Assembly (NCBI GenBank): GCA_043826355.1
Contig: JBDRQI010000003.1
Coordinates: 7,440-71,439 of the forward strand
Reading direction: 5' to 3'
Origin: Candidatus Omnitrophota bacterium
GTDB lineage: Bacteria > Ratteibacteria > UBA8468 > MWAK01
Length of the DNA: 64,000 bases
Within the stretch, counting starts at the first letter, position 1; each line of letters starts with the position of its first letter. Of the stretch, positions 1 to 53,130 are shown piece by piece. The translations under genes and the position numbers were made by a program. The notes under the pieces are model-generated. The model ran no database searches. It was not told the origin of the DNA and saw only the letters and a program-made list of their open reading frames with translations.

Positions 1-562
1 GAAAGAAGTATCCCGGGCGATGTGGAAATTGATGAATTACAGTCTTAGACACGTAAAATGGCTAATTGAAGTTAAAGGAATCCATTTTGACGCTCTCTAC
101 TTTTCGGCCGACCTTTGCTACCGCAACGGCATGCTCTTTTCCCCGAAAATATACCGTGAACTGATTATGCCAATTCATCAGGAATATAAGCGATTTTGTG
201 CTGAACACAATATGTTCTTTATGCTGCATTGTGACGGCGATGTGCGGGAGTTTATTCCGCTGGTCATCGAATCTGGTTTCGACGCAATAGAACCTTTAGA
301 AGCAAGGGCTGGAAATGATGTCCGGGAGCTGAAAGCCCTGTACGGCGACCGGATTACTTTTTTCGGGAATATAAATGCGGATATAATAGCCAACGGCACG
401 AAAGAACAGATTCGGGAAGAGGTTATATCTAAAGTTAACGTAGCCAAACAAGGCGGGGGTTACATATATCACATAGACCACTCTGTTCCACCAACGATTA
501 GTCTTGACAATTATTCTTTTTTAATCAAAACGCTCAAAGAAGCAGCAAAGATTGTAAGATAA
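1..562 (+). CDS. Uroporphyrinogen decarboxylase (URO-D)/MtaA-like family protein, 5'-truncated by window edge
   Basis: ORF continues from before position 1; translated C-terminal half resembles URO-D/methylcobamide methyltransferase family fold (…HCDGDVREFIPL…FDAIEPLE… motif context). Family-level similarity by eye only. Confidence 0.55.
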   Translation, partial: KEVSRAMWKLMNYSLRHVKWLIEVKGIHFDALYFSADLCYRNGMLFSPKIYRELIMPIHQEYKRFCAEHNMFFMLHCDGDVREFIPLVIESGFDAIEPLEARAGNDVRELKALYGDRITFFGNINADIIANGTKEQIREEVISKVNVAKQGGGYIYHIDHSVPPTISLDNYSFLIKTLKEAAKIVR

Positions 563-724: not shown

Positions 725-843
725 CCCTGGTGACTATAGCGAAAGGGCCACACCCGTTCCCATTCCGAATACGGTCGTTAAGCCTTTCTGCGCCAATGGT
801 ACTGCTCTGGATAACGGAGCGGGAGAGTAGGTCGTCACCGGGG
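725..843 (+). rRNA. rrf: 5S ribosomal RNA (unlinked to 16S/23S in this window)
   Basis: Sequence carries 5S loop-C/helix consensus stretch CACCCGTTCCCATTCCGAATACGG..GTTAAGC..GAGAGTAGG; terminal helix I pairs CCCTGGTGAC with GTCACCGGGG (10 bp incl. one G-U); followed by U-run (CATTTTTAT). Confidence 0.85.
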
Positions 844-953
844 GCATTTTTATATCAATCCGCCTTTATTCAACATCACATTCCATCGTATTTTTCTTCC
901 CTCTCTGTCGGTTTGCTTGCTGTCTTTTCCCATATTGAGTTATAATAAAAAGA

Positions 954-1036: not shown

Positions 1037-2965
1037 ATGCGCAGAATAAGGAACATCGGTTTCTTTGGGCAGGGCAAAAGCGGTAAAACCACTTTGATTG
1101 AAGCGCTGCTTTTAAAAGCCGGGTCCATTAACCGGGCCGGAAACATTGCAGACGGAAATACAACACTGGATTTTGACCCCGAAGAAGTAAAAAGGCAACT
1201 CAGTGTAAATCTGGCTCTCGGCCACCTGGATTGGAAAGACGTCCGAGTCAACCTGATCGATACACCCGGATACGCCGACTTTTGCGGAGAGGCAATTTCC
1301 GGAGCCGTTGCAGCCGATTTTGCCGTTATTACTGTTCCGGCGGATAGTGGTCCGGCAGTCGGCGCCGAACATGCCTGGAAATTAGTTTCCAAACTTAACC
1401 TGCCAACCATCTTTTTTTTAACCAAGGCAGATCTCAAGCCGGACGCCGGCGAAGAACTGGCAAACAAATTAAGTCAGAAATGGCAGGTCCGGATTGTGCC
1501 GGCAAATAACCGGCAGGCGCTGGTAGAGGTTGCTGCGGAAACAGATGAAGCAACGCTCGGCAAATATCTGGAAGAAGGCGCTCTTTCTTCGGAAGAGTTT
1601 AAATCCGGTCTGAAAAAAGCGATTATGGACCGTCAGGTATTTCCGCTTTTTACCGCGTCGGCAACCAAAGGGGACGGCCTGGCGGAGTTTCTTGACTTTA
1701 CGGTTGATTTTCTGCCGGAATACTCAGAACTACCGCCGATTCCATTCCAGGGGGAAGGTTTTTGCCTCCGTTCTGATTCAAATCCACTATTCCTCCGTGT
1801 TTTTAAGACAACCAGTGACCCTCACGTTGGCCGACTTTCCTATTTTAAAGTTGAATCCGGCATCCTTTCACATAACTCAACATTATTTAATATCAACCAC
1901 TCGGAAAAGGAACGCCTGGGACAATTTTTCTTTATTCAGGGCAAAAAACAGGAACCGGTGGAAAAAGGAGAGCCGGGTGATATTCTGGGCGTGGCCAAAT
2001 TAAACTATACCCATATCGGAGACACAATATCTGTTAACGGTCAGACAAAATCTTTTCCGGCGCTTAATTTCCCCAATTCCGCTATTTCGGTGTCGTTATC
2101 TCCCAAAGAAAAGGGGAACGAGGATAAATTAGGGGTTGCTTTCAACCGAATACTGGAAGAAGATCCGACTATTAAAATTCATCGGGATGCCGAAACCGGC
2201 GAAACGATTCTTTCCGGTATCGGCGACCTGCAACTTGACGTTTGGGTGAGCCGTCTGGCAAAACGTTTTAGTGCGGAAGTAGTTAAGGGTATCCCCAGAA
2301 TTGCTTACCGGGAAACGGTTACGGCGCCTGCCAGCGGTCAAGGAAAGTTTAAAAGACAGGCCGGCGGTCACGGCCAGTATGGTGACTGCTGGCTGAAGAT
2401 TGAACCTCTTACCCGGGGCGGCGGTTTTGAATTTGTAGACGCGGTTGTCGGCGGAGCCATTCCCAGGCAGTATATACCTTCAGTGGAAAAGGGCGTCCGG
2501 GAAGCAATGAACAAAGGCGTTCTGGCTAACTATCCGATGACCGATATCCGGGTTACCCTTTACGATGGTACATTTCATCCGGTGGATTCCTCGGACATTG
2601 CTTTTCAACTCGCCGGTTCTCTGGCGTTAAAAAAAGTGGCGTCGGAAGCAAAATCCGCCCTACTGGAACCGATTATGAACGTAGAAGTTATTGTACCCAA
2701 GGATTATGTTGGGGACATCATCGGAGACATAAACGGACGCCGGGGCAAAGTCTTAAGTATGGATACGGCCGAGGGTGAAAACCAGGTGGTTGTTACCCAG
2801 CTGCCCCTGGCTGAAATGGCCAATTACGCCACTTCGCTGCGTTCCCTGACCAGCGGACAGGCCAGTTACCAGGCAAACTTCTCTCATTATGAATTTGTCC
2901 CCTATCACATTTCGGAAAAGATTGTTAAGGAACGGGAAACGGCCAAGGGAGTTACGAAAGAATAA
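1037..2965 (+). CDS. Elongation factor G-like translational GTPase paralog with degenerate G-motifs
   Basis: 642 aa; EF-G domain order recognisable (G domain, domain II, III, IV GQYGDCWLKIEP…, V). P-loop GQGKSGKTT, G3 DTPGYADF (catalytic His replaced by Tyr), G4 TKAD instead of NKxD. Confidence 0.8.
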   Translation: MRRIRNIGFFGQGKSGKTTLIEALLLKAGSINRAGNIADGNTTLDFDPEEVKRQLSVNLALGHLDWKDVRVNLIDTPGYADFCGEAISGAVAADFAVITVPADSGPAVGAEHAWKLVSKLNLPTIFFLTKADLKPDAGEELANKLSQKWQVRIVPANNRQALVEVAAETDEATLGKYLEEGALSSEEFKSGLKKAIMDRQVFPLFTASATKGDGLAEFLDFTVDFLPEYSELPPIPFQGEGFCLRSDSNPLFLRVFKTTSDPHVGRLSYFKVESGILSHNSTLFNINHSEKERLGQFFFIQGKKQEPVEKGEPGDILGVAKLNYTHIGDTISVNGQTKSFPALNFPNSAISVSLSPKEKGNEDKLGVAFNRILEEDPTIKIHRDAETGETILSGIGDLQLDVWVSRLAKRFSAEVVKGIPRIAYRETVTAPASGQGKFKRQAGGHGQYGDCWLKIEPLTRGGGFEFVDAVVGGAIPRQYIPSVEKGVREAMNKGVLANYPMTDIRVTLYDGTFHPVDSSDIAFQLAGSLALKKVASEAKSALLEPIMNVEVIVPKDYVGDIIGDINGRRGKVLSMDTAEGENQVVVTQLPLAEMANYATSLRSLTSGQASYQANFSHYEFVPYHISEKIVKERETAKGVTKE

Positions 2966-2989
2966 TGGAGTTATGAAAAGAGGTGGGCT

Positions 2990-3739
2990 ATGAGCGGACA
3001 TTCCAAGTGGGCAAGCATCAAGCACAAAAAAGCGGCAACCGATGCGAAGAAAGGCAAAGCCTTTACCAAACTTATCCGCGAGATTATGATGGCGGCGCGC
3101 AACGGAGGCGGTAACTCTGACTCCAATTCCAGACTGCGCCTGGCTGTTGAAAAAGCGAAAGAAGAAAACATGCCGGCCGAAAATATCAAAAGAGCGATCC
3201 AGAAAGGAACCGGTGAAGGCAACGAAAACCAGATGGAAGAGATTTCCTACGAAGGATACGGTCCGGCCGGCGTGGCGATTAAACTTGACGTCGTTACCGA
3301 CAACAAGCGCCGCACCGCCTCGGAAATCCGGTCGGTTTTTTCTAAAAACAACGGGAATCTGGGCGAAGTAGGGTGCGTTTCCTGGATCTTTGAACGAAAG
3401 GGGCAGATTTCGATTCCCCGAACCGGAGCAGATGAAGACGCGCTCTTTACCCTGGCAATCGAATCCGGAGCGGAAGATGTTGTTTCGGAACCGGACTTTT
3501 TCCAGATATACACCCGGGCCGAAGACCTGGAAAAGGTAAAGAAATCCGTGGAGGCGGGCGGCATTAAGGTACAATCAGCGTTCTTTACGATGCAACCCAA
3601 AACAACAATCCGAATTGAAGGCAAAGATGCAGAACAACTTTTACGCCTGCTTGACGCCCTGGAAGACCACGACGACGTGCAAACGGTCTATTCCAACTTT
3701 GAAATTTCAGACGACCTTTTGGAAAAATTAAATATTTAG
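2990..3739 (+). CDS. yebC: YebC/PmpR family DNA-binding transcriptional regulator
   Basis: N-terminus MSGHSKWASIKHKKAATDAKKGK… is the hallmark YebC start; 249 aa typical length. Confidence 0.85.
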   Translation: MSGHSKWASIKHKKAATDAKKGKAFTKLIREIMMAARNGGGNSDSNSRLRLAVEKAKEENMPAENIKRAIQKGTGEGNENQMEEISYEGYGPAGVAIKLDVVTDNKRRTASEIRSVFSKNNGNLGEVGCVSWIFERKGQISIPRTGADEDALFTLAIESGAEDVVSEPDFFQIYTRAEDLEKVKKSVEAGGIKVQSAFFTMQPKTTIRIEGKDAEQLLRLLDALEDHDDVQTVYSNFEISDDLLEKLNI

Positions 3740-3780
3740 TGTAATTTACTGAAACGAGGACTATTTTTTTGCAACACTTC

Positions 3781-3912
3781 GCGTAATGTCAGCTGCAAAA
3801 CAAGCAATACGGAGGTTTGAGTATCCGGGGCTCGCCGGTTCTCCTGGCGAGAACACGGAGAGGCTCAAGCCGTAAGTTGCGTAGTTTTGTCTGATACGCA
3901 GAGTGTGTAGCA
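3781..3912 (+). ncRNA. Candidate structured RNA / repeat element, copy 1 (family shared with 46541-46740)
   Basis: Ends pair (UGUCAG..CAAAAC with GUUUUG..CUGAUA), internal hairpin CUCGCC/GGCGAG; homologous copy at 46.5 kb shows compensatory CUCACC/GGUGAG. Identity unknown. Confidence 0.3.
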
Positions 3913-3934
3913 AAAAAAACATCCGAGAGACCGA

Positions 3935-4423
3935 ATGATAGTGGCCGGATTTGACCCGGGACTGAACCGAACCGGTTTTGGAATTATCGAGAATTTAGCG
4001 CCGCTTTCGGTTCTGGGCTTCGGGGTAATTGCGCCCCGTGCCAGTAAAATTTTCGCGGAACGCTTATCCGAAATTTACGCCGGCGCCCGCCGGGTTCTGA
4101 AGGAGTATGCTCCGGACGTAATTGTGGTGGAAGAGATTTATTTTGCGAATAATCCCCAGACTACTCTTAAGATTGGGATTGTCCGGGGTCTTCTCTTTGC
4201 GGCGGCTCTGGAGCAAAAAATTGAAATCGCTTCCTTTTCGCCTGCGGAAGTAAAGATGGCGGTTGTCGGAAAAGGCAACGCCACCAAAGACCAGGTTGGT
4301 TTTCTGGTTGCCAGAATTTTGGGGATAAAAAAAGAAATTCCGGAAGACAGCGCAGACGCCCTGGCGGTTTCTCTTTGTTATCTCAGCCATCAAAAGTATA
4401 AGAGCAAATTATTGTTGGTGTAG
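3935..4423 (+). CDS. ruvC: Crossover junction endodeoxyribonuclease RuvC
   Basis: 162 aa, N-terminus MIVAGFDPGLNRTGFGII typical RuvC; followed by ruvA-ruvB. Confidence 0.9.
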   Translation: MIVAGFDPGLNRTGFGIIENLAPLSVLGFGVIAPRASKIFAERLSEIYAGARRVLKEYAPDVIVVEEIYFANNPQTTLKIGIVRGLLFAAALEQKIEIASFSPAEVKMAVVGKGNATKDQVGFLVARILGIKKEIPEDSADALAVSLCYLSHQKYKSKLLLV

Positions 4424-4504
4424 GGGAGGGGCTGTGCCCCTTCTCACAGTAGGACAGTCGTCTCGCTTGTCAAAACACGGGCGGGGATGTAACCCCGCCC
4501 CTAC
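4420..4504. repeat. GC-rich hairpin repeat element (GGGGAGGGG-type module plus second hairpin), upstream of ruvA
   Basis: gtaggggaggggctgtgcccc…cgggcggggatgtaaccccgcccctac; inverted termini GTAGGGG/CCCCTAC; related copy before leuC (61.26 kb) sharing tcgc(t/c)tgtcaaaa..cacggg and ending ctacaaa(a)atat immediately before the start codon. Confidence 0.55.
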
Positions 4505-4520
4505 AAAAATATTTTAATTT

Positions 4521-5099
4521 ATGTACGCCTATCTGCGCGGAAAATTAGCGGTTAAGAACCCGACCTCGGTAATCCTTGATTTGGCCGGCGTGGGTTACGA
4601 AGTGAGCATACCGCTTTCTACCTTCGACCATCTACCCGAAACGGGCGGCGAAGTTTTTCTTTATATTTACCCCTGCTACCGGCCGGAAAATATTACCCTT
4701 TGCGGTTTTGCCACCAAGGAAGAGAAACTGCTCTTCAACCTTCTTCTGGGGGTAAACGGCGTGGGTCCAAAACTCGGGCTGACCATCCTCTCCGGCACAA
4801 CCGCGGCTCACTTCCGGGATGCTATTATTTCCGGAGACGATAAGACACTCTGCGCTATTTCCGGTATCGGTAAAAAACTGAGCCAGCGCCTGATTACCGA
4901 ACTGAAAGACCAGATTATCAATCTGGAAGAATCTCTTTCCTCCGGTACGGAATCATCTCTGGAGAAAGAGGCGATTGGTGCCCTGGTAACACTGGGCTAT
5001 TCCCGCGCCAAAGCCTACAAAGCAGTTCAGGACGCAATGAATTCCAGGAAACCGGGTAGATTGGAACCGTTAATTAAAGAGGCCCTGAAACGGATTTAA
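4521..5099 (+). CDS. ruvA: Holliday junction branch migration protein RuvA
   Basis: 192 aa; MYAYLRGKL…VILDLAGVGYEV… canonical RuvA N-terminus; C-terminal domain present. Confidence 0.9.
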   Translation: MYAYLRGKLAVKNPTSVILDLAGVGYEVSIPLSTFDHLPETGGEVFLYIYPCYRPENITLCGFATKEEKLLFNLLLGVNGVGPKLGLTILSGTTAAHFRDAIISGDDKTLCAISGIGKKLSQRLITELKDQIINLEESLSSGTESSLEKEAIGALVTLGYSRAKAYKAVQDAMNSRKPGRLEPLIKEALKRI

Positions 5100-5172
5100 T
5101 GCAACGGTGTCATTCCCGCAGACAGCAAGCGGGAATCCATTTTAGTAGGTTTGATGTCATAATTGATTCCCG

Positions 5173-6216
5173 ATGGAAAAAAAACGGATTGACCTTACCG
5201 CACCCGATACTCTCCCCGAGGACACAAAGTATGATATCGCCCTGCGTCCGGTCAGCCTGGACGATTTTATCGGCCAGGATAAACTGAAACGAAATCTGAA
5301 AATTTTTATCCAGGCCGCATCCGAACGTAAGGACCCGCTTGACCACACGTTATTTTCCGGTCCGCCGGGTCTGGGTAAAACGACGCTGGCGCACATTATC
5401 GCTGCGGAAATGGGTGTAAAGATCAAAGCCACTTCCGGTCCCGCGATTGAACGCCCGGGAGACCTGGCCGGCCTGTTGACCAACCTTGGCCGTTCCGACG
5501 TAATCTTTATTGACGAAATACACCGGCTTAATCATACCGTAGAAGAATACCTGTACGGTGCGATGGAGGACTTTCACATTGATATTATGACTGGGGACGG
5601 TCCGCGCGCCAATTCCATCCGATTGACCCTGGAACCGTTTACCCTGCTCGGCGCCACCACCCGCGCCGGCCTTTTAACCGCGCCCCTGCGGTCCCGGTTC
5701 GGCATCAACCTGCGGCTGGATTATTATCCGTCGGACAACCTGGCGGCCATCGTGCGGCGCTCCGCCGGAATTCTCAAAGTTGTGATTGAAGACGGGGCCT
5801 CCGGAGAGATTGCCCGGCGCAGCCGCGGGACTCCCCGGATCGCCAACCGTCTTTTGCGCCGGGTGCGGGATTTCGCCCAGGTTTCCGGCGAGAAGATAAT
5901 CCGGCAGGAACTGGTTGTTTCGGCGCTGGACAGCATGGATGTCGACCGGTTCGGACTGGACGAGATGGATAAGCGTATTCTGGAGGTCATCATCCAAAAA
6001 TTTTCCGGAGGACCGGTAGGCGTTAAAACCCTTTCGGTAGCGGTCGGCGAAGAAGTGGATACCCTGGAGGAGATTTACGAACCGTTTCTGGTCAGGGAAG
6101 GATATTTGGAGCGGACCCTGAAAGGCCGCCTGGCAACACCCCGCGCTTATCAGCATCTTAATCTGGAAATTCCGAAGTCGTTGTCCGACCAGTCTAAACT
6201 TTTTAATAATACATAG
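5173..6216 (+). CDS. ruvB: Holliday junction branch migration ATPase RuvB
   Basis: 347 aa; Walker A GPPGLGKTTLA, AAA+ RuvB architecture. Confidence 0.95.
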   Translation: MEKKRIDLTAPDTLPEDTKYDIALRPVSLDDFIGQDKLKRNLKIFIQAASERKDPLDHTLFSGPPGLGKTTLAHIIAAEMGVKIKATSGPAIERPGDLAGLLTNLGRSDVIFIDEIHRLNHTVEEYLYGAMEDFHIDIMTGDGPRANSIRLTLEPFTLLGATTRAGLLTAPLRSRFGINLRLDYYPSDNLAAIVRRSAGILKVVIEDGASGEIARRSRGTPRIANRLLRRVRDFAQVSGEKIIRQELVVSALDSMDVDRFGLDEMDKRILEVIIQKFSGGPVGVKTLSVAVGEEVDTLEEIYEPFLVREGYLERTLKGRLATPRAYQHLNLEIPKSLSDQSKLFNNT

Positions 6217-46748: not shown

Positions 46749-47186
46749 CTACCAATTGCCAATATCATCCTCAGTCCCTCTTTTCCGGTCCGGTCCGCAG
46801 GAAAAGAGCAAAAAAGGCGCTGATTGATGTACTTGCTGCGGGTATTGATACTGGTAGGGTTCTTTCCACGGATCCAACAGTTCTCCGGCCTGAAGGTCTT
46901 TTTCCTTAAAACGCAGATAGGGACCTTTCCAACGGGGGTTTTCGGTTTCCCCGATCAGGACACTTAACACTTCCCGGAAGGTACCGGAATGGGTCGGATA
47001 ATCGCCGAAATCGGTTTCGTACAGGGAAAGGGCTGTTTCAAGCGCAATGATGGTTGCCTGGACTTTGGTGAACAACCCTCTCTGTCTTGCTTTTTGGCTG
47101 GCCGGTAAAACAAGACCGGCCAGAATGGCTCCGATGGCTACAACGATCAGTGTCTCCAGCAGGGAAAAACCTCTGCGATTAACCAC
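46749..47186 (-). CDS. gspG: T2SS major pseudopilin GspG
   Basis: …RRGFSLLETLIVVAIGAILAGL… with Glu5 after predicted cleavage; 145 aa. Confidence 0.85.
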   Translation of the reverse strand: MVNRRGFSLLETLIVVAIGAILAGLVLPASQKARQRGLFTKVQATIIALETALSLYETDFGDYPTHSGTFREVLSVLIGETENPRWKGPYLRFKEKDLQAGELLDPWKEPYQYQYPQQVHQSAPFLLFSCGPDRKRGTEDDIGNW

Positions 47187-48459
47187 CGGACATACTCATG
47201 GCAAGTGTAATAAGCGGCATAAAGAGAGAGACAACGATAAATCCGACCACGCCACCCATAAATACGATTAGAATTGGTTCAATCATCGAGGCAAGCGCTT
47301 CCACCGCGCGGTCCACTTCCTCTTCGTAGGCATCAGCCACCTTGTCCAGCATCGCATCCAGTGTACCGGTTTCCTCACCCACGGCCACCATGTTGATCAA
47401 CATTGGCGGAAAAACAGCAGTTTTAATCATCGGGTTACTCACACCGGCGCCTTCCTTTACCTCATCATGTACTTTTCCAATCGCTTGGCTGACCACCTGA
47501 TTGCCGACTGTTTCCCGCACAATTTCGAAAGCGGTTAAAATGGGAACACCGCTGGTAATTAAGGTTGCCAGTGTCCGAGCAAATCTGGCGATGATGGTTT
47601 TATATGTCACCGGTCCGGCCAGCGGGATTTTAAGTTTGGCCGAATCAATCATATACCGGGTGGTAGGAATACGTAAGAGAATCCGGTAAGCAATAACTAT
47701 TACGATGAGTATCAAGATACCAAGCCAGAGACGGGTGGTTAAAAATCCGCTTAAAAAGATCAGGAAACGAGTGGGAGGCGGCAGCGCCCCGGCTTCAAAA
47801 TCTTGAAATATGGTCACAAATACCGGCACGATCTTTAACATAATAAACGCGACGATACCGGTAGCAACAATTACGATTACCGTCGGATACGCCATGGCCG
47901 CCTTTATCTTCCCCCGCAACTTTGCGTCCTTTTCCGCAAATTCCGCCAGGCGGTTTAAGACGCTATCCATGGAACCGCTGCTTTCACCGGCCCGAACCAT
48001 TGCGATGTAAATGCGCGGAAAACTTTTGGGGTGTTTCGCCATCGCCTGGGAAAGAAGCGCTCCCTGTTCTACCTCGGCTGCCAGACTTTCTACAACCGTA
48101 GCCGCACCTCCTTTCTGCTGGTCTCTGATGGTACGCAAAGCACGCAACAATGCAAGCCCGGAACTTAAAAGAGTTGCTAACTGCCGGGTAATAACTGCCA
48201 GAACTTTTGTTTTGATTACGGCGCCGCCGAAGGAGAAAGAGAGAGAAAAACCGCTCTTTTTTGCCTTTACCGCCGGCCCGGACGCTGCTGTCCTTCCCGC
48301 GGCGGGCGCCGGTTTATTTGCTCTCGTTTCGGCTAAATCGGAAAGGGTCAAGCCCCGTTCCTTGAGGACGGTAATCGCCGCCTGCAGTCCTTCGGATTCA
48401 ACCGTACCGGAAACAATCTTCCCTTTTCCATCAAAACCGCTGTATTTGAAGGTTCCCAT
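47179..48459 (-). CDS. gspF: T2SS/T4P inner-membrane platform protein GspF/PilC
   Basis: 426 aa; two GspF repeats, three TM segments. Confidence 0.85.
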   Translation of the reverse strand: MGTFKYSGFDGKGKIVSGTVESEGLQAAITVLKERGLTLSDLAETRANKPAPAAGRTAASGPAVKAKKSGFSLSFSFGGAVIKTKVLAVITRQLATLLSSGLALLRALRTIRDQQKGGAATVVESLAAEVEQGALLSQAMAKHPKSFPRIYIAMVRAGESSGSMDSVLNRLAEFAEKDAKLRGKIKAAMAYPTVIVIVATGIVAFIMLKIVPVFVTIFQDFEAGALPPPTRFLIFLSGFLTTRLWLGILILIVIVIAYRILLRIPTTRYMIDSAKLKIPLAGPVTYKTIIARFARTLATLITSGVPILTAFEIVRETVGNQVVSQAIGKVHDEVKEGAGVSNPMIKTAVFPPMLINMVAVGEETGTLDAMLDKVADAYEEEVDRAVEALASMIEPILIVFMGGVVGFIVVSLFMPLITLAMSMSGG

Positions 48460-48570
48460 AAATATTCAGCATACAGCATACAGTAAACGGTAGGACAAGG
48501 GGAAAAATCATTCTTTAAATGTCTTAAGTTTTTCCCCGCATACTATGCTACTTTATGCTGTCTACTGCCC

Positions 48571-50280
48571 TTACGCGTAACCATGAATTTCATGACTAAC
48601 TTCACTGATAGTCGTTATTCCCTTCAAAATTTTTTCCTGGCCGTCCAACGTCATGGTGTGCATTCCTTGTTCTACGGCCTTTTTCCGGATTTCACTCAGT
48701 GGTTTTCGGGCGATAACCATTGCCCATAATTCCTCATTAGGCACCAGGACTTCGAAAAGGGCGGTTCTGCCCCGAAATCCGCCTTTACAACGCGTGCAGC
48801 CCTTAGGTTGATAAAATTTTTGGTCTTTGACCTTTTCCGGCTTAAAACCAACCTCCGTCAATTCTAACTCTTTTGGCGTATATTCCAACTTGCATTCCGG
48901 ACAAAGTGTTCGCACCAGGCGCTGTCCGATAATACCAATAATTGTGGAAGAAAGGAGGTAGGGTTCAATCGTCATATCCATTAACCGGGTAATCGCACTG
49001 GGCGAATCGTTGGTGTGCAGGGAGGAAACTACCAAGTGTCCGGTCAAACTGGCCTGAATAGCGATTTCCGCTGTTTCCAAATCCCGAATTTCTCCCACAA
49101 AAATAATATCCGGATCCTGCCGCAGAATAGAACGCAGACAAGAAGAAAAGGTAAGCCCGATCTTTTCCCTGATCGGAACCTGGATGGCGCCGGGTAAAAG
49201 ATACTCCACCGGGTCTTCGGTTGTAATCAATTTGATATCCGGCGAGTTAAGCTCTTTAAGAGACGCATAAAGGGTGGTGGTCTTTCCGCATCCGGTAGGA
49301 CCGGTTGCCAGAATAATTCCTTGCGGTACCTTAATCAGGTTTTCAATCTTTTCCTGGTCATCGGGATGCAGTCCGATGTTATCCAAGCGGAAATCAACCC
49401 GGGTCCGGTCCAGGACGCGCACCGCCAGACATTCCCCGAAAACCGTCGGAACCGTAGAAAGACGCAGGTCAAGGTCCCGACCGCCCGTATGAAATTCCAG
49501 CCGGCCGTCCTGGGGAAGCCGCCTTTCCGAAATATCCATTCCGGACATAATCTTGAACCGACAGAAAAGCCCGAAAGCCAAATCCTTGTACGGGTGAACC
49601 AGGTCGTAGAGTTTTCCATCCACGCGGTAACGCACCCGGAAATCGTTTTCGAAAGGTTCCAGATGTATATCGCTGGCATTGTCCTTGCATACCTGAAGAA
49701 GAATTACGTTAAAAAGGCTGGTAACCGGCGGCTGGTTAGCCAATTCTTCCAGGGTGGAAACGTCGGTTATTTGGTCGGTGCCGGCTTTTACTCCAAGGTC
49801 AACGTCCGTCTCTGCGAAATAACTCATGATTTCGTTGATGGACATTGTTTCCCGGCCGTAATATTTCTCCAGGGCGGCATCAAGTTCTTTCGGGTCAGCC
49901 AGCACCATTTTTACATTTCGACCAAGGGTAAAACGAATGTTTTCCTGGACAAAATCGTTTAAAACATCGTTAACTGCAAGGATAACTGTATCCCGGCCTT
50001 CCTGTCCCACCGGCAGAATTTGGTAGGTCTTCGCAATGACGGCCGGAATTAATTTGATTATGTTCGGCGGGATATCTTTTTTGGCAAGTTCAATCGTTTC
50101 TATACCGCTCTGAACCGAAAGCACCCGGCGCAGGACATTTTCATCCACAAAATGAAGGTCAACCAGGGTCCGTCCCAGGAATTTTCCGGTGCGTTGCTGC
50201 TCTTCTAAAGCAACCCGCAGCCGCTCCTCGGATAACAGGTTCATCTCCTTCAAAACTTGACCTAAAAGTTTTCTAGCCAT
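48571..50280 (-). CDS. gspE: T2SS/T4P assembly ATPase GspE/PilB family (copy 2)
   Basis: GspE_N-type N-domain, Walker A GPTGCGKTT, Asp/His boxes, tetracysteine CPECK…CTRC; 569 aa. Confidence 0.85.
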   Translation of the reverse strand: MARKLLGQVLKEMNLLSEERLRVALEEQQRTGKFLGRTLVDLHFVDENVLRRVLSVQSGIETIELAKKDIPPNIIKLIPAVIAKTYQILPVGQEGRDTVILAVNDVLNDFVQENIRFTLGRNVKMVLADPKELDAALEKYYGRETMSINEIMSYFAETDVDLGVKAGTDQITDVSTLEELANQPPVTSLFNVILLQVCKDNASDIHLEPFENDFRVRYRVDGKLYDLVHPYKDLAFGLFCRFKIMSGMDISERRLPQDGRLEFHTGGRDLDLRLSTVPTVFGECLAVRVLDRTRVDFRLDNIGLHPDDQEKIENLIKVPQGIILATGPTGCGKTTTLYASLKELNSPDIKLITTEDPVEYLLPGAIQVPIREKIGLTFSSCLRSILRQDPDIIFVGEIRDLETAEIAIQASLTGHLVVSSLHTNDSPSAITRLMDMTIEPYLLSSTIIGIIGQRLVRTLCPECKLEYTPKELELTEVGFKPEKVKDQKFYQPKGCTRCKGGFRGRTALFEVLVPNEELWAMVIARKPLSEIRKKAVEQGMHTMTLDGQEKILKGITTISEVSHEIHGYA

Positions 50281-50304
50281 TTTTTTTGTGGGGTCCCTTG
50301 TACT

Positions 50305-51399
50305 TTATACTTTGGGTGGTGGCGCTGTTTCCTGGTCAACCGATAACATGCGTTTTTCCAACTGTTCTCCATCATAAGAGGCTTCAGCTGCCTCATGGCG
50401 AGTTATTATACCCCGGAAATACGCTTCCAGTAAAGACTGGTCCATAGTTTTCATACCATGCTTCATTCCGGTTTGAATTTCAGAGACGATCCGATAAGTT
50501 TTCTTTTCCCGGATGAGGTTGGCGATAGCCGCCGTGGCAACCATTATTTCGTAAACCGCGATGCGTCCCTTTTTGTCAGACCGGGCCAAAAGCTGCTGTG
50601 AAACAACCGCTAAAATGGAAGCCGAAAGCATTACCCGAATCTGCTCCTGTTCTTCGATGGGAAACGATTCCACAATACGGTCAACGGTGCGGGAGGCGCC
50701 GGTAGTGTGCAGAGTCGCAAAAACAAGGTGCCCGGTTTCGGCCGCAGTTATCGCCGCTCGAATCGTTTCGGTATCGCGCATTTCACCAACCAAAAATACA
50801 TCCGGATCCTGCCGCAGGCCTCTTCTTAAACCCTCGGAAAAATTTGGCAGGTCAACACCCAATTCCCGTTGGGAAATAATAGATTTTTTATGTTGGTGGT
50901 AATATTCAATCGGGTCTTCAACGGTAATAATGTGCCGGTCCATCGTTTCGTTAATGTGGTTGATCATGGTTGCCAACGTGGTGGTTTTTCCGCAACCGGT
51001 CGGACCGGTTATCAAAAAAAGCCCCCGGGGCCGGCTCAAAAGCTCAACTACTTTTGGACCAAGACCCAGATATTCAAAAGAATAGAATTTATACGGAATA
51101 AGCCGCAGGGAAATTGCAATTTCGCCTTTCTGCCGATAAACAGCCACCCGGAACCGGGCCAGGTCCTTAAAAGCGAATCCGAAATCGGTGCTGCCGACTT
51201 TCGCCAACTCTTCCTGGTGTTGATGGGAAGTAATTGATTTCATATAGCCAACGGTGTCTTCCGGGGTGAGCGGCTCCTGGTCCATATTCACCAAACTGCC
51301 ATGCAACCGCATCGTCGGTGGACGGTGAGAGTGAATATGCAAATCGGATCCATCCTCCTTAATAATTCGCGTCAGTAGTTCGTCTAACGGCAAAGCCAT
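50305..51399 (-). CDS. pilT: Twitching-motility-type retraction ATPase PilT
   Basis: 364 aa, no N-terminal GspE_N domain, Walker A GPTGCGKTT, PilT-typical C-terminus. Confidence 0.8.
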   Translation of the reverse strand: MALPLDELLTRIIKEDGSDLHIHSHRPPTMRLHGSLVNMDQEPLTPEDTVGYMKSITSHQHQEELAKVGSTDFGFAFKDLARFRVAVYRQKGEIAISLRLIPYKFYSFEYLGLGPKVVELLSRPRGLFLITGPTGCGKTTTLATMINHINETMDRHIITVEDPIEYYHQHKKSIISQRELGVDLPNFSEGLRRGLRQDPDVFLVGEMRDTETIRAAITAAETGHLVFATLHTTGASRTVDRIVESFPIEEQEQIRVMLSASILAVVSQQLLARSDKKGRIAVYEIMVATAAIANLIREKKTYRIVSEIQTGMKHGMKTMDQSLLEAYFRGIITRHEAAEASYDGEQLEKRMLSVDQETAPPPKV

Positions 51400-51423
51400 A
51401 TTTCCTCCTTTTTCCGCAATCCC

Positions 51424-53130
51424 CTAGTCCAGCCCGGTAGCCGAAATCACTTCGTCGTAAGTAGTTATCCCTTTTTTTACCTTAATTAATCCGTCTTCAC
51501 CCATAGTGCGCATACCGGAACGGCGGGCGGCGAGCCTTATTTCACTGCTGGGTGCTTTACGCAAAACCAACTGTCGTATTTCATCGTTTACAATAAAGAT
51601 TTCAAATATTCCTTTTCGGCCGCGGAAACCGGTATTGTTGCAACTTTCACAACCACCGGGTCGGCAGACGTCAACCTTTTCATCCGGTCCTATTCTCAAA
51701 ATTTCTTTCTCTGCCTCGGTCGGCTGATCGTGAACTTTACAGGAGGGACAGAGGATTCGGACCAGGCGCTGGGCCATCACACCCTGAAGCGAAGAAGCCA
51801 CCAGAAAAGGCGCGGTTCCAAGGTCAATCAACCGGGTGGCGGCTGCGGTGGCATCATTGGTGTGTAACGTGGAAAAAACCAGGTGGCCGGTCAGGGCGGC
51901 GCGTAAAGCGATATCCGCCGTTTCGAAATCACGAATCTCACCAACCAGGATTACATCCGGCGCCTGACGCAAAAGGCTGCGCAGAATCAAGGAAAAAGTC
52001 AGACCTATTTCGGTCCGCACCGGGGTTTGATTAATTCCTTCGATCTGGTATTCAACCGGTTCTTCCACGGTCATAAGTTTACGGTCTGTGGTGTTAAGCG
52101 ATGAGAGTGAAGTATAAAGAGTCGTTGTCTTACCGCTTCCGGTTGGCCCGGTTACCAGAACGATTCCTCCGGAATAACGGAGTAATTCGTTCCACTTTGC
52201 TTCATCTTCGGTCAAAAATCCCAGCTGGTTCATGTTTAGCAACATTGAACTTTTATCCAGGATTCTCATTACGATGCTCTCACCGTAAATCCCCGGCAAA
52301 GAACTGACTCGCAAATCAATCTGCCGACCGCCGGCCCGAATCATAATCCGGCCGTCTTGAGGCAACCGTTTTTCGGCCAGGTCCATTCCCGCCATCAGTT
52401 TAAACCGGGCAATTAAAGAACTCTGGAGAATACGCGGTGGGCTGATGGTTTCGTGAAGAACGCCGTCAATCCGGTAACGAATCCGGAACAGATCCTCCAG
52501 AGGTTCAACGTGAATATCGCTGGAACGTTTGTTGAGGGCATCGGTAATAATTGCGTTTGCCAACCGGATGACCGGTGCCTCCATAGCATCTTCCTGTCCT
52601 TCTTGTGGCTTGCCGACCGCAGTGAGGCTTTCTTCATTAACTTCTCCGGTATAACCCTTGTCCACCTTCCCTAAAATAGAAATAAAATCTTCTTTTTCCA
52701 GGCCGTAAAACTTACCTAAAAAAGTTTTAATGCTCTCGCTGTCGGTAATTTCCAGCTTTAGCTTAGTCACGTTCAGGAAGATTTTCAGGTTGTCAATAAC
52801 CAGGTAGTTTAACGGTTCATCGGTTGCTAAAACCAGCGTTTCGCCATCAAGTTCAATCGGCACAACATGGTGCTCCCGGGCAAAACTGGAGGTCACTTTT
52901 TCAATAACATCCGGGGGTATTTCGGAAAAAGCCAGCGGCGCCGGGGTTATTCCGATCTGAGACAATAAAGAAACACTGGATCCTGACCCGGCAAGGTAGC
53001 CCAAATCATTCAACACCTTCTTGATCGACCCGGATTTCCGCAACTGCTCTTTGACTGCCGCATCTATCTGCTTACGGTTTAAAAATCCGATATTTTCAAT
53101 AACCCGGAGAATTTTGCTGGCGGTATGCAT
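51424..53130 (-). CDS. pilB: T2SS/T4P assembly ATPase GspE/PilB family (copy 1)
   Basis: 568 aa; GspE_N N-domain, Walker A GPTGSGKTT, tetracysteine CPSCK…CESC. Confidence 0.85.
   Translation of the reverse strand: MHTASKILRVIENIGFLNRKQIDAAVKEQLRKSGSIKKVLNDLGYLAGSGSSVSLLSQIGITPAPLAFSEIPPDVIEKVTSSFAREHHVVPIELDGETLVLATDEPLNYLVIDNLKIFLNVTKLKLEITDSESIKTFLGKFYGLEKEDFISILGKVDKGYTGEVNEESLTAVGKPQEGQEDAMEAPVIRLANAIITDALNKRSSDIHVEPLEDLFRIRYRIDGVLHETISPPRILQSSLIARFKLMAGMDLAEKRLPQDGRIMIRAGGRQIDLRVSSLPGIYGESIVMRILDKSSMLLNMNQLGFLTEDEAKWNELLRYSGGIVLVTGPTGSGKTTTLYTSLSSLNTTDRKLMTVEEPVEYQIEGINQTPVRTEIGLTFSLILRSLLRQAPDVILVGEIRDFETADIALRAALTGHLVFSTLHTNDATAAATRLIDLGTAPFLVASSLQGVMAQRLVRILCPSCKVHDQPTEAEKEILRIGPDEKVDVCRPGGCESCNNTGFRGRKGIFEIFIVNDEIRQLVLRKAPSSEIRLAARRSGMRTMGEDGLIKVKKGITTYDEVISATGLD

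Follow-up and report, generated by a model that had tools for sequence, protein, structure and literature searches.

The reading frame at positions 1037-2965 of the stretch of Omnitrophota DNA analysed here (64 kb; the window) encodes a protein with the build of elongation factor G (EF-G) and an unusual set of GTPase motifs. This raises the question of whether its catalytic centre has degenerated, or whether such motifs are normal for the family to which it belongs. EFG II, an ancient and widely distributed additional copy of elongation factor G, normally accompanies the canonical factor. We conclude that the protein is almost certainly a member of the EFG II (EF-G2) family in an uncultured Omnitrophota bacterium. 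Judged by sequence comparison, its unusual motifs are the normal EFG II signature and no private decay.

The EF-G2 gene, its motifs and its family

The gene is an open reading frame on the forward strand with an ATG start, preceded by a GGGAG ribosome-binding site at 1027-1031, and encodes 642 aa. Pfam analysis identified all five EF-G modules: GTP_EFTU (aa 3-227), EF-G_D2 (255-333), EFG_III (345-416), EFG_IV (420-539) and EFG_C (542-627). An AlphaFold2 model (pLDDT 88, pTM 0.79) matched ribosome-bound EF-G structures with TM-scores of up to 0.93, and EF-G-2 and EF-G2 structures as well. In this predicted structure, which is of high confidence, the five-domain fold is intact. The features of the gene are as follows.

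1037..2965, + strand: EF-G2 (EFG II-type) elongation factor G paralog, 642 aa (ORF, NF009381, Pfam, AlphaFold2, dN/dS)
1067..1093, + strand: G1 (P-loop) GQGKSGKTT, aa 11-19 (sequence and homolog alignment)
1193..1207, + strand: G2 (switch I) RQLSV, aa 53-57, instead of RGITI (sequence and homolog alignment)
1259..1282, + strand: G3 (switch II) DTPGYADF, aa 75-82 (sequence and homolog alignment)
1421..1432, + strand: G4 TKAD, aa 129-132 (sequence and homolog alignment)
1436..1627, + strand: shortened G' subdomain, aa about 134-197 (HMM alignments, DSSP of the model)
1658..1666, + strand: G5 SAT, aa 208-210 (sequence and homolog alignment)
2363..2386, + strand: domain IV loop-I tip GGHGQYGD, aa 443-450 (sequence; same as the Thermus thermophilus EF-G-2 tip)

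The motifs named in the original prediction were found exactly as described, with GQGKSGKTT beginning at aa 11, DTPGYADF at aa 75, TKAD at aa 129 and GQYGD at aa 446. Tyr79 (nt 1271-1273) occupies the catalytic His position of switch II. In the P-loop, Gln12 and Lys14 stand where AHIDAGKTT has His and Asp, and Gly11 and Leu20 are of the EFG II type; Gly16 and Leu25, in the numbering of the 1WDT structure, are type-I EFG II positions (PMC3150367). Ser56 of RQLSV occupies the Mg-coordinating Thr position, and the motif as a whole fits the relaxation of RGITI to xxxSx that is a defining EFG II trait (PMC3150367). TKAD keeps the Lys and the guanine-specificity Asp, with Thr for Asn. The nucleotide-binding determinants are all kept, namely the P-loop GxxxxGKT, Ser56 for Mg2+, DxxG, the G4 Lys and Asp, and the G5 SA.

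A full EF-G architecture had been claimed for the protein. This held for the five domains, but not for the G' subdomain. Relative to T. thermophilus EF-G the G' insertion lacks about 46 residues, and relative to T. thermophilus EF-G-2 about 41; HMM alignments pass over residues 142-212 of the former protein and 142-202 of the latter. Helices alone remain in G', as determined by DSSP of the AlphaFold2 model. The acidic, L7/L12-contacting G' helix ETDEATLGKYLEEG is kept, with E168 invariant and D170 and D171 nearly so, as is the tip of domain IV.

Comparison of the whole protein with NCBIfam models gave 763 bits for NF009381 (EFG II), above its cut-off of 583, and 543 bits for TIGR00484 (canonical EF-G), below its equivalog cut-off of 659.4. 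The best model for T. thermophilus EF-G-2 is likewise NF009381 (810 bits). Scores were below cut-off for the Bacteroidetes EF-G2 model NF058620 (484 against 1000 bits) and the EF-G-like EF-G2 model NF009377 (532 against 890). Tet-type protection proteins, BipA, LepA and RF3 were excluded, as their NCBIfam scores lay far under the cut-offs. The canonical signature DTPGH / RGITI / AHxDxGKT is absent, these motifs reading DTPGY, RQLSV and GQGKSGKT. All six type-I EFG II residues of Margus et al. 2011 (Gly16, Leu25, Ser61, Thr291, Gly333 and Lys/Arg352, 1WDT numbering; PMC3150367) are found in the protein, as G11, L20, S56, T258, G302 and K321. At the type-II EFG II positions (D216, V250, L264, K471, K472, E513 and G603), the protein keeps D170, K439 and E484, and carries Arg for K472, Leu for V250, Phe for L264 and Ser for G603.

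In a neighbour-joining tree of Kimura distances, with canonical EF-G represented by two sequences only and spdEFG and Tet sequences left out, the split between the Escherichia coli and T. thermophilus EF-G pair and all other sequences was recovered in 200/200 bootstraps. The protein thereby groups with T. thermophilus EF-G-2, away from canonical EF-G. The model scores, the tree and a position outside the str operon, described below, all agree with the prediction of an EF-G paralog that is not the canonical factor.

Conservation and genomic neighbourhood

Analysis of the closest homologs showed Tyr at the switch-II His position in 120/120. In an alignment of 56 sequences (44-92% identity), Tyr79 and 68 other positions were invariant. 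A scan of reference genomes with the EF-G2 protein turned up relatives as close as 92% identity; among the 84 EFG II genes from reference genomes, the switch-II residue was Tyr in 47, Asp in 31 and Phe in 6, and His in none, and the GQYGD tip was present in 79. Within the Omnitrophota, orthologs of 671 aa keep the canonical GQYGH tip, and sister species of the clade have TKSE in G4.

The reading frame is unbroken in all relatives. Over the whole protein, dN/dS against orthologs was 0.084 and 0.099; within the G core it was 0.076-0.10, so that constraint there is as strong as elsewhere in the protein. The G' subdomain is the least constrained part (0.2-0.39). Conservation is highest in domain IV and lowest in G', as described for EFG II (PMC3150367). 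These substitution patterns show strong purifying selection, the G domain included, and point to an intact and functional gene. The description of the motifs as degenerate was not borne out, given the invariant Tyr79, the purifying selection on the G core and the residue states shared with 1WDT. Between the window and one related locus (L004), identity was 52% for EF-G2 and 61% for RuvB; by this measure the EF-G2 gene evolves no slower than RuvB, unlike canonical EF-G.

The genes and sites around the EF-G2 gene are as follows.

726..843, + strand: orphan 5S rRNA gene, about 190 nt 5' of the EF-G2 gene (Rfam RF00001, 91.8 bits)
941..946, + strand: TATAAT box, with TTGCTG at 917-922 and an 18-nt spacer, in the 5S-EF-G2 interval (alignment of the window with loci L006 and L002)
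2990..3739, + strand: yebC (TACO1/YebC family), 24 nt 3' of the EF-G2 gene (ORF, Pfam on orthologous loci, synteny)
3935-4423, + strand: ruvC (ORF, orthologous loci, tblastn)
4521-5099, + strand: ruvA (ORF, orthologous loci, tblastn)
5173-6216, + strand: ruvB (ORF, orthologous loci, tblastn)

The EF-G2 gene had been described as standing alone next to an unlinked 5S rRNA gene. The 5S gene is real, and no 16S or 23S rRNA gene was found in the whole 64-kb window, but the EF-G2 gene is not alone, as yebC and ruvCAB adjoin it from 24 nt downstream. The order EF-G2-yebC-ruvC-ruvA-ruvB, on one strand, is kept in all loci of Omnitrophota relatives examined, and a URO-D-family gene is also among the neighbours. 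The str operon context (rpsL-rpsG-fusA-tuf) was not found at the EF-G2 gene, nor at its counterparts in relatives.

The 5S gene lies in the same position in L006 and L002, the closest relatives. It is preceded by a promoter-like TTGACA-17-TAACAT at 687-715 and followed by a T-run. The TATAAT box does not vary between the window, L006 and L002, and with TTGCTG would be a candidate promoter of the EF-G2 gene itself. No terminator-like site was scored between the 5S and EF-G2 genes, and an Rfam search of the spacer for regulatory RNA at E <= 1 gave the 5S alone. Given the T-run and the conserved TATAAT box, separate transcription of the two genes is at least as likely as joint transcription.

Comparison with characterized EF-G proteins

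The founding EFG II structure is that of T. thermophilus EF-G-2 (TTHA1498, PDB 1WDT/2DY1), with the motifs GHAGSGKTT, DAPGYGDF, TKLD and GGHGQYGD. Both proteins match NF009381 and group against canonical EF-G, and they share the Gly that opens the P-loop, the Leu after GKTT, DxPGY, TKxD and GGHGQYGD. The fold is alike (E 2.9e-74, TM 0.82 against the query model). Identity, however, is about 35%, and the Omnitrophota protein differs in having Ser rather than Thr at the G2 position, Gln12 and Lys14 rather than His and Gly in the P-loop, and a G' subdomain about 41 residues shorter; activity has been reported for the Thermus protein. Against canonical Thermus EF-G, domains II-V of the query reached 433 bits, more than the 421 bits of the entire query against Thermus EF-G-2. 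Because of the low identity and the closeness of domains II-V to canonical EF-G, orthology to Thermus EF-G-2 is not claimed, only membership of the subfamily.

Mycobacterium smegmatis EF-G2 (PDB 9K0Z/9K10), a non-essential second EF-G (bioRxiv 10.64898/2026.05.25.727771), shares the replacement of His by Tyr, the G4 Asn to Thr change and the loss of RGITI, with a similar fold (TM 0.89 against the query model). It differs in belonging to another NCBIfam model (NF009377; query 532 bits, below 890), in its full-length G' and 709 aa, and in its G1 and G5, which are more degenerate than the intact GxxxxGKT and SA of the query. Bacteroides thetaiotaomicron EF-G2 (FusA2, BT2167; PDB 7UVP/8DMF), an alternative, non-essential factor (PMC10294740), was the best PDB match to the query G domain (126.5 bits) and likewise lacks the catalytic His. 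Unlike the query, it has Ser at the His position, NQLD in G4 and 718 aa, and its own model, NF058620, gives the query 484 bits, below 1000. Canonical EF-G (EFG I, fusA) shares the five domains and the fold, with 433 bits for domains II-V against the Thermus protein. From it the query differs in Tyr for His, RQLSV for RGITI and P-loop G for A, in its sub-threshold TIGR00484 score, in its place outside the str operon and in its short G'.

Traits specific to the Omnitrophota lineage are the G' shortened by about 41-46 residues, Gln12/Lys14 and the synteny 5S-EF-G2-yebC-ruvCAB. Thermus EF-G-2 is no close relative, and function is not simply transferable to this protein from it or from the other EF-G2 proteins studied.

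GTP hydrolysis and cellular role

Taken as a whole, the explanation that we somewhat favour is that of an EF-G2-family auxiliary factor which binds GTP and has weak or absent ribosome-stimulated hydrolysis. The protein would bind GTP and dock in the factor-binding site of the ribosome as EF-G does. An invariant Tyr replaces the switch-II His, and the residues that frame this His are changed too (Ile and Asp of AHIDAGKT, Gly and Ile of RGITI). With this substitution and the altered P-loop and switch-I frame, ribosome-stimulated hydrolysis would be weak or absent. Such a protein may translocate slowly and without hydrolysis or, alternatively, stabilize a ribosome state under energy or nutrient limitation. 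A hydrolysis-independent or low-energy role is the one reported for mycobacterial and Bacteroides EF-G2 (bioRxiv 10.64898/2026.05.25.727771; PMC10294740). An auxiliary role is also suggested by the absence of a str operon, by evolution no slower than that of RuvB and by the domain IV/G' conservation pattern, and translocation was considered unlikely as the main function of EF-GII by Atkinson 2015 (PMC4342817).

Published biochemistry bears on the mechanism from both sides: Thermus EF-G-2 is reported to hydrolyse GTP and to translocate, the mycobacterial and Bacteroides proteins to be without ribosome-stimulated GTPase. In M. smegmatis EF-G2, where Tyr98 stands for His88 and Thr for the G4 Asn, ribosome-dependent GTPase is minimal; Tyr98 faces away from the gamma-phosphate, and mycobacterial EF-G1 loses nearly all GTPase activity when it carries H88Y (bioRxiv 10.64898/2026.05.25.727771). 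B. thetaiotaomicron EF-G2, which is induced when carbon is limiting, supports translation independent of GTP (PMC10294740). For T. thermophilus EF-G-2, GTPase activity, both intrinsic and ribosome-dependent, and activity in poly(Phe) assays are reported in spite of its Tyr and TKLD (as cited in PMC3150367 and bioRxiv 10.64898/2026.05.25.727771). The predicted GTPase impairment thus fits the mycobacterial and Bacteroides proteins but conflicts with the active Thermus one, and Tyr alone is no proof of lost hydrolysis. Since this literature is split, an impaired GTPase with a non-canonical role is plausible, though unproven, and the low-GTPase mechanism in itself stands evenly balanced.

The alternative that survives best, though it is the less likely, is that the Omnitrophota protein resembles T. 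thermophilus EF-G-2 in being fully active, both as a GTPase and as a translocase; its Tyr switch II would then provide alternative catalysis, and it would serve as a second and perhaps condition-specific EF-G. The activity attributed to the Thermus protein with DAPGY, TKLD and GQYGD, in the reports as cited, is its main precedent, and the kept acidic G' helix is consistent with it. The invariance of Tyr79 and the low G-core dN/dS would be just as compatible with a catalytic centre that works in a different way. It is weakened by the near-inactive H88Y mutant and the minimal activity of the Tyr98-bearing M. smegmatis protein, by the additional absence of Ile and Asp from the P-loop and of the RGITI residues, and by the loss of about 41-46 G' residues.

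It is very improbable that EF-G2 is the only EF-G of its genome, performing all translocation and recycling without the catalytic His. A tblastn search with the protein matched only itself in the 64-kb window, and no second EF-G or other translational GTPase was found there or in 87 related loci (about 1.2 Mb); these loci, of about 20 kb each, say nothing on whole genomes. Vertical inheritance across the Omnitrophota with synteny kept, and the canonical-type GQYGH tip of the 671-aa orthologs, would also suit a sole factor. Against this, in a survey of 305 genomes a lone EF-G was always EFG I, and EFG II always occurred with another EF-G (PMC3150367). The place of the gene outside the str operon and its divergence, as fast as that of RuvB or faster and unlike canonical EF-G, also argue against it. 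An Omnitrophota lineage without canonical fusA, in which an EF-G with Tyr in switch II and a truncated G' were the sole translocase and recycling factor, would be an important finding, but we regard it as highly unlikely. If true, it would break the rule of EFG II always having a companion EF-G, and it would show that bacteria can manage routine translation in the absence of the catalytic histidine. A weaker and likewise speculative variant is that EF-G2 forms a phylum-conserved module for difficult translation with the adjacent translation factor YebC.

A Tet(M)/Tet(O)-type ribosomal protection protein, or a similar antibiotic-displacing factor, is more doubtful still: it shares the domain plan, but the weak match to tet_protect (NF012153; 252.8 bits) is far under the cut-off of 775, scores were lower again for Tet(M/W/O/S) (172 bits), Tet(M) (138), Tet(Q) (114) and also Otr(A), and the context is chromosomal, housekeeping and vertically conserved. 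A decaying duplicate with an eroding GTPase centre, which the non-canonical residues in G1 to G4, the short G' and the TKSE of sister species might suggest, is the least credible reading and is rejected on dN/dS of about 0.08-0.10, G core included, and the residues invariant over 56 sequences, with the unbroken frame in all relatives and the high-confidence predicted fold also against it.

The EFG II family has already been described, and what is new here is its Omnitrophota member. The locus provides a calibration point, in that the lack of the catalytic His, with TKxD and a GQYGD tip, is a hallmark of EFG II/EF-G2 and not the mark of a one-off degenerate GTPase. Roles differ within EF-G2: the Thermus protein is active, the mycobacterial one is without GTPase and linked to stress, and the Bacteroides one acts independently of GTP hydrolysis and is required to colonise the gut. 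The Omnitrophota clade represents a naturally minimised EF-G2, with a helix-only G', an altered P-loop and, in sister species, TKSE in G4. This minimised version could help to ask which parts of the G domain EF-G2 really needs.

Subfamily assignment of the EF-G-like protein

The EF-G-like gene was delimited as follows.

1037-2965, + strand: EF-G2 ORF, ATG start, 642 aa

The ORF has a GGGAG ribosome-binding site 6 nt upstream. String searches of the translation located all four motifs where the original prediction had reported them: GQGKSGKTT at aa 11, DTPGYADF at aa 75, TKAD at aa 129 and GQYGD at aa 446. The full EF-G architecture it had described was recovered in that the Pfam domains GTP_EFTU, EF-G_D2, EFG_III, EFG_IV and EFG_C occur in order, but the G' insertion is shortened. 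An AlphaFold2 model based on 56 homologs was confident (mean pLDDT 88.2, pTM 0.79) and superposed on ribosome-bound EF-G structures with TM ≤0.93. Annotation assigns the nearest relatives to Candidatus Omnitrophota or Ratteibacteria MAGs; the best reference-genome match is JAHJUB010000141.1 (92% identity), and the identical protein is encoded on a 5.6-kb Logan contig of run SRR26275510.

Comparison with EF-G family HMMs, proposed as a check in the original prediction, showed that the protein passes NF009381 and fails both TIGR00484 and tet_protect.

Scores of the protein against NCBIfam models
NF009381 (PRK12740.1-5, "elongation factor G" subfamily): 763 bits, cut-off 583
TIGR00484 (canonical EF-G): 543 bits, cut-off 659.4
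NF009377: 532 bits, cut-off 890
Bacteroidetes EF-G2 model: 484 bits, cut-off 1000
tet_protect: 253 bits, cut-off 775

TypA, LepA and RF3 identities were rejected, with scores far lower still. NF009381 is also the best match of Thermus thermophilus EF-G-2, at 810 bits. For the G domain alone, the nearest structure was Bacteroides thetaiotaomicron EF-G2 (7UVP/8DMF, 126.5 bits), followed by T. thermophilus EF-G-2 (1WDT, 114 bits), with canonical EF-G just below both at 111 bits.

Margus, Remm and Tenson defined EFG II by a relaxed G2 motif (RGITI to xxxSx), poorly conserved domains I-III, and six positions conserved otherwise than in EFG I, the canonical EF-G (PMC3150367). Alignment with 1WDT showed that all six diagnostic positions are present (G11, L20, S56, T258, G302 and K321); of seven further "type II" positions, four agree, counting Arg at K472, and three differ (Leu for V250, Phe for L264 and Ser for G603). 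A neighbour-joining tree was built from the protein, 28 homologs, Thermus EF-G-2, Thermus EF-G and E. coli EF-G (sequence checked). The two canonical factors split from all others, Thermus EF-G-2 included, in 200/200 bootstraps, and a clade of 641-642-aa proteins was recovered equally often. The protein is thus a member of a family described in 2011, with three structurally solved members.

Conservation of the altered motifs

The original interpretation was half right. That the gene is a paralog, probably with a non-canonical role, stands; motif degeneracy does not, as conservation among homologs and the states in 1WDT identify the changes as a family signature rather than decay. The full 1WDT sequence reads GHAGSGKTTL, DAPGYGDF, VTKLDK and, at the domain IV tip, GGHGQYGD, so G3, G4 and the tip, out of the four "degenerate" motifs, have the same state in Thermus EF-G-2. 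The Gly-for-Ala at the P-loop start is also common to both proteins. Tyr follows DxPG in 120/120 closest database homologs, and Tyr79, at the position of the switch-II catalytic His, is among 69 invariant columns of a 56-sequence alignment (44-92% identity). In 84 EFG II-type genes of reference genomes spread over many phyla, the residue at this position was Tyr in 47, Asp in 31, Phe in 6 and never His.

Against the 92% and 87% orthologs, dN/dS was 0.084 and 0.099 overall, 0.076-0.10 in the G-domain core and 0.2-0.39 in the G' remnant. Domain IV was the most conserved part at greater distance (85% and 74% identity, versus 70% and 52% overall). The rate at which the protein diverges is similar to that of YebC and a little above that of RuvB.

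Loci L013-L087 comprise EFG II genes from WOR-3, Acidobacteriota, Desulfobacterales and other groups; besides the Tyr, Asp or Phe at the switch-II His position, their G4 varies too, with NQxD, NKLK, NKAS and others. The Asp-type and Phe-type groups seem not to be discussed in the EF-G2 literature cited here. The P-loop of Omnitrophota EFG II proteins reads GxxKSGKT, with Lys (Lys14 here, 1076-1078) at a site that in EF-G and EF-Tu is a conserved Asp adjoining the catalytic centre and that in other EFG II groups is Gly, Gln or Asp.

GTP hydrolysis and the shortened G' subdomain

Three features set the 641-642-aa clade (the protein and homologs P0001-P0007) apart from the 666-674-aa Omnitrophota orthologs: a G' about 29 residues shorter, Thr for Asn in G4, and a GQYGD rather than GQYGH tip. 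HMM alignment placed residues 133 to 159 where Thermus EF-G has 141 to 213, and 136 to 157 where Thermus EF-G-2 has 141 to 203; the shortened stretch is modelled as helices only. This minimised G' is the sole distinctive trait of the protein, which comes from a poorly studied phylum. In the 70%-identity branch (P0003-P0006; fetched loci L002 10001-11926 and L009 9118-11031), G4 reads TKSE, replacing the guanine-specificity Asp with Glu, a substitution suggesting that nucleotide specificity may be altered or relaxed in this clade.

The nucleotide-binding determinants are all present and constrained: P-loop GxxxxGKT, the switch-I Ser for Mg2+, DxxG, the G4 Lys and Asp, and SA in G5. The acidic G' helix facing L7/L12 is conserved in the 56-sequence alignment (E168 invariant, D170 and D171 nearly so), and conservation extends to the positively charged loop that precedes the domain IV tip (K439 invariant, and R440). 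The protein would probably bind GTP and sit at the EF-G site of the ribosome.

The literature on GTP hydrolysis by EF-G2 is split. Mycobacterium smegmatis EF-G2, a stress-specific factor, has Tyr98 for His88, pointing off the gamma-phosphate, and Thr for the G4 Asn; its ribosome-dependent GTPase activity is minimal, and H88Y nearly abolishes that of EF-G1 (bioRxiv 10.64898/2026.05.25.727771). B. thetaiotaomicron EF-G2 supports GTP-independent translation and is strongly induced under carbon limitation (PMC10294740). Atkinson considers translocation unlikely as the main function of EF-GII (PMC4342817). An active GTPase is a doubtful reading here, one that would follow the example of T. thermophilus EF-G-2, for which GTPase activity, both intrinsic and ribosome-dependent, and poly(Phe) activity are reported (as cited in PMC3150367 and bioRxiv 10.64898/2026.05.25.727771) despite the same Tyr and TKLD. 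Our protein, in addition, has neither the P-loop Ile and Asp nor the Gly and Ile of RGITI, residues that frame the catalytic His in EF-G, and much of its G' is gone. For this reason we favour, at about even odds, weak or absent ribosome-activated hydrolysis; the role may be slow, hydrolysis-independent or state-stabilising, under energy limitation.

Genomic context in the Omnitrophota

Features around the gene and elsewhere in the window
20-562, + strand: C-terminal part of a URO-D-family protein
from 687: conserved TTGACA-17-TAnnAT box before the 5S gene
726-843, + strand: 5S rRNA gene
941-946: conserved TATAAT between the 5S gene and the EF-G2 ORF
954-990: tandem repeat (period 19) of an 18-nt unit in the EF-G2 leader
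1037-6216: EF-G2, yebC, ruvC, ruvA, ruvB
47179-53130, - strand: a T2SSF-family gene, then three consecutive T2SSE/PilB-type ATPase genes (568, 363 and 567 aa)

The gene had been described as alone beside an unlinked 5S gene. The 5S gene is there, but yebC starts 24 nt downstream of EF-G2. Apart from the 5S gene, the 64 kb window contains one RNA gene, a tRNA-Gly; no 16S or 23S was found there or within 10 kb in L002, the ~70% relative. The orphan 5S, ~190 nt upstream of EF-G2, is kept in L006 (the ~92% relative, 65-182) and L002 (9668-9784), an adjacency that persists down to 70% protein identity. The repeat unit, TTGGAGTTTTATAAATAG, is single-copy in L006, and an Rfam search of the 5S-EF-G2 spacer gave no match. 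On the matching Logan contig (L001 83-2338), two tandem URO-D-family genes precede the 5S gene.

A search of the window and of 87 related loci (~20 kb per genome) found no further translational GTPase; a str operon is also absent from the window. That this is the sole EF-G of its genome is very improbable, because in 305 genomes a single EF-G was always EFG I and EFG II always accompanied another EF-G (PMC3150367), and because the divergence and conservation profile fits the EFG II pattern, not that expected for a sole canonical EF-G. Otherwise the window carries ordinary housekeeping genes (uppS, dxr, rseP, ispG, alaS, dnaB, argS, ftsK, cca, leuA, leuC), together with 47179-53130, which resembles a type IV pilus or type II secretion cluster in which the ATPase gene is triplicated.

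The order EF-G2, yebC, ruvC, ruvA, ruvB, ABC ATPase occurs in every fetched Omnitrophota locus, with a BFN-domain gene after EF-G2 in some, though not in the window; EF-G2-yebC-ruvCAB loci span 92% to 42% identity (L002-L012). EFG II loci of other phyla do not show this order, so EF-G2 is an old gene of the phylum, inherited vertically. Current papers describe YebC as a translation factor serving proline-rich stretches (PMC12234827, PMC11990639). Thus, the two translation factors may be co-expressed, or the linkage may merely reflect the old yebC-ruvC pairing.
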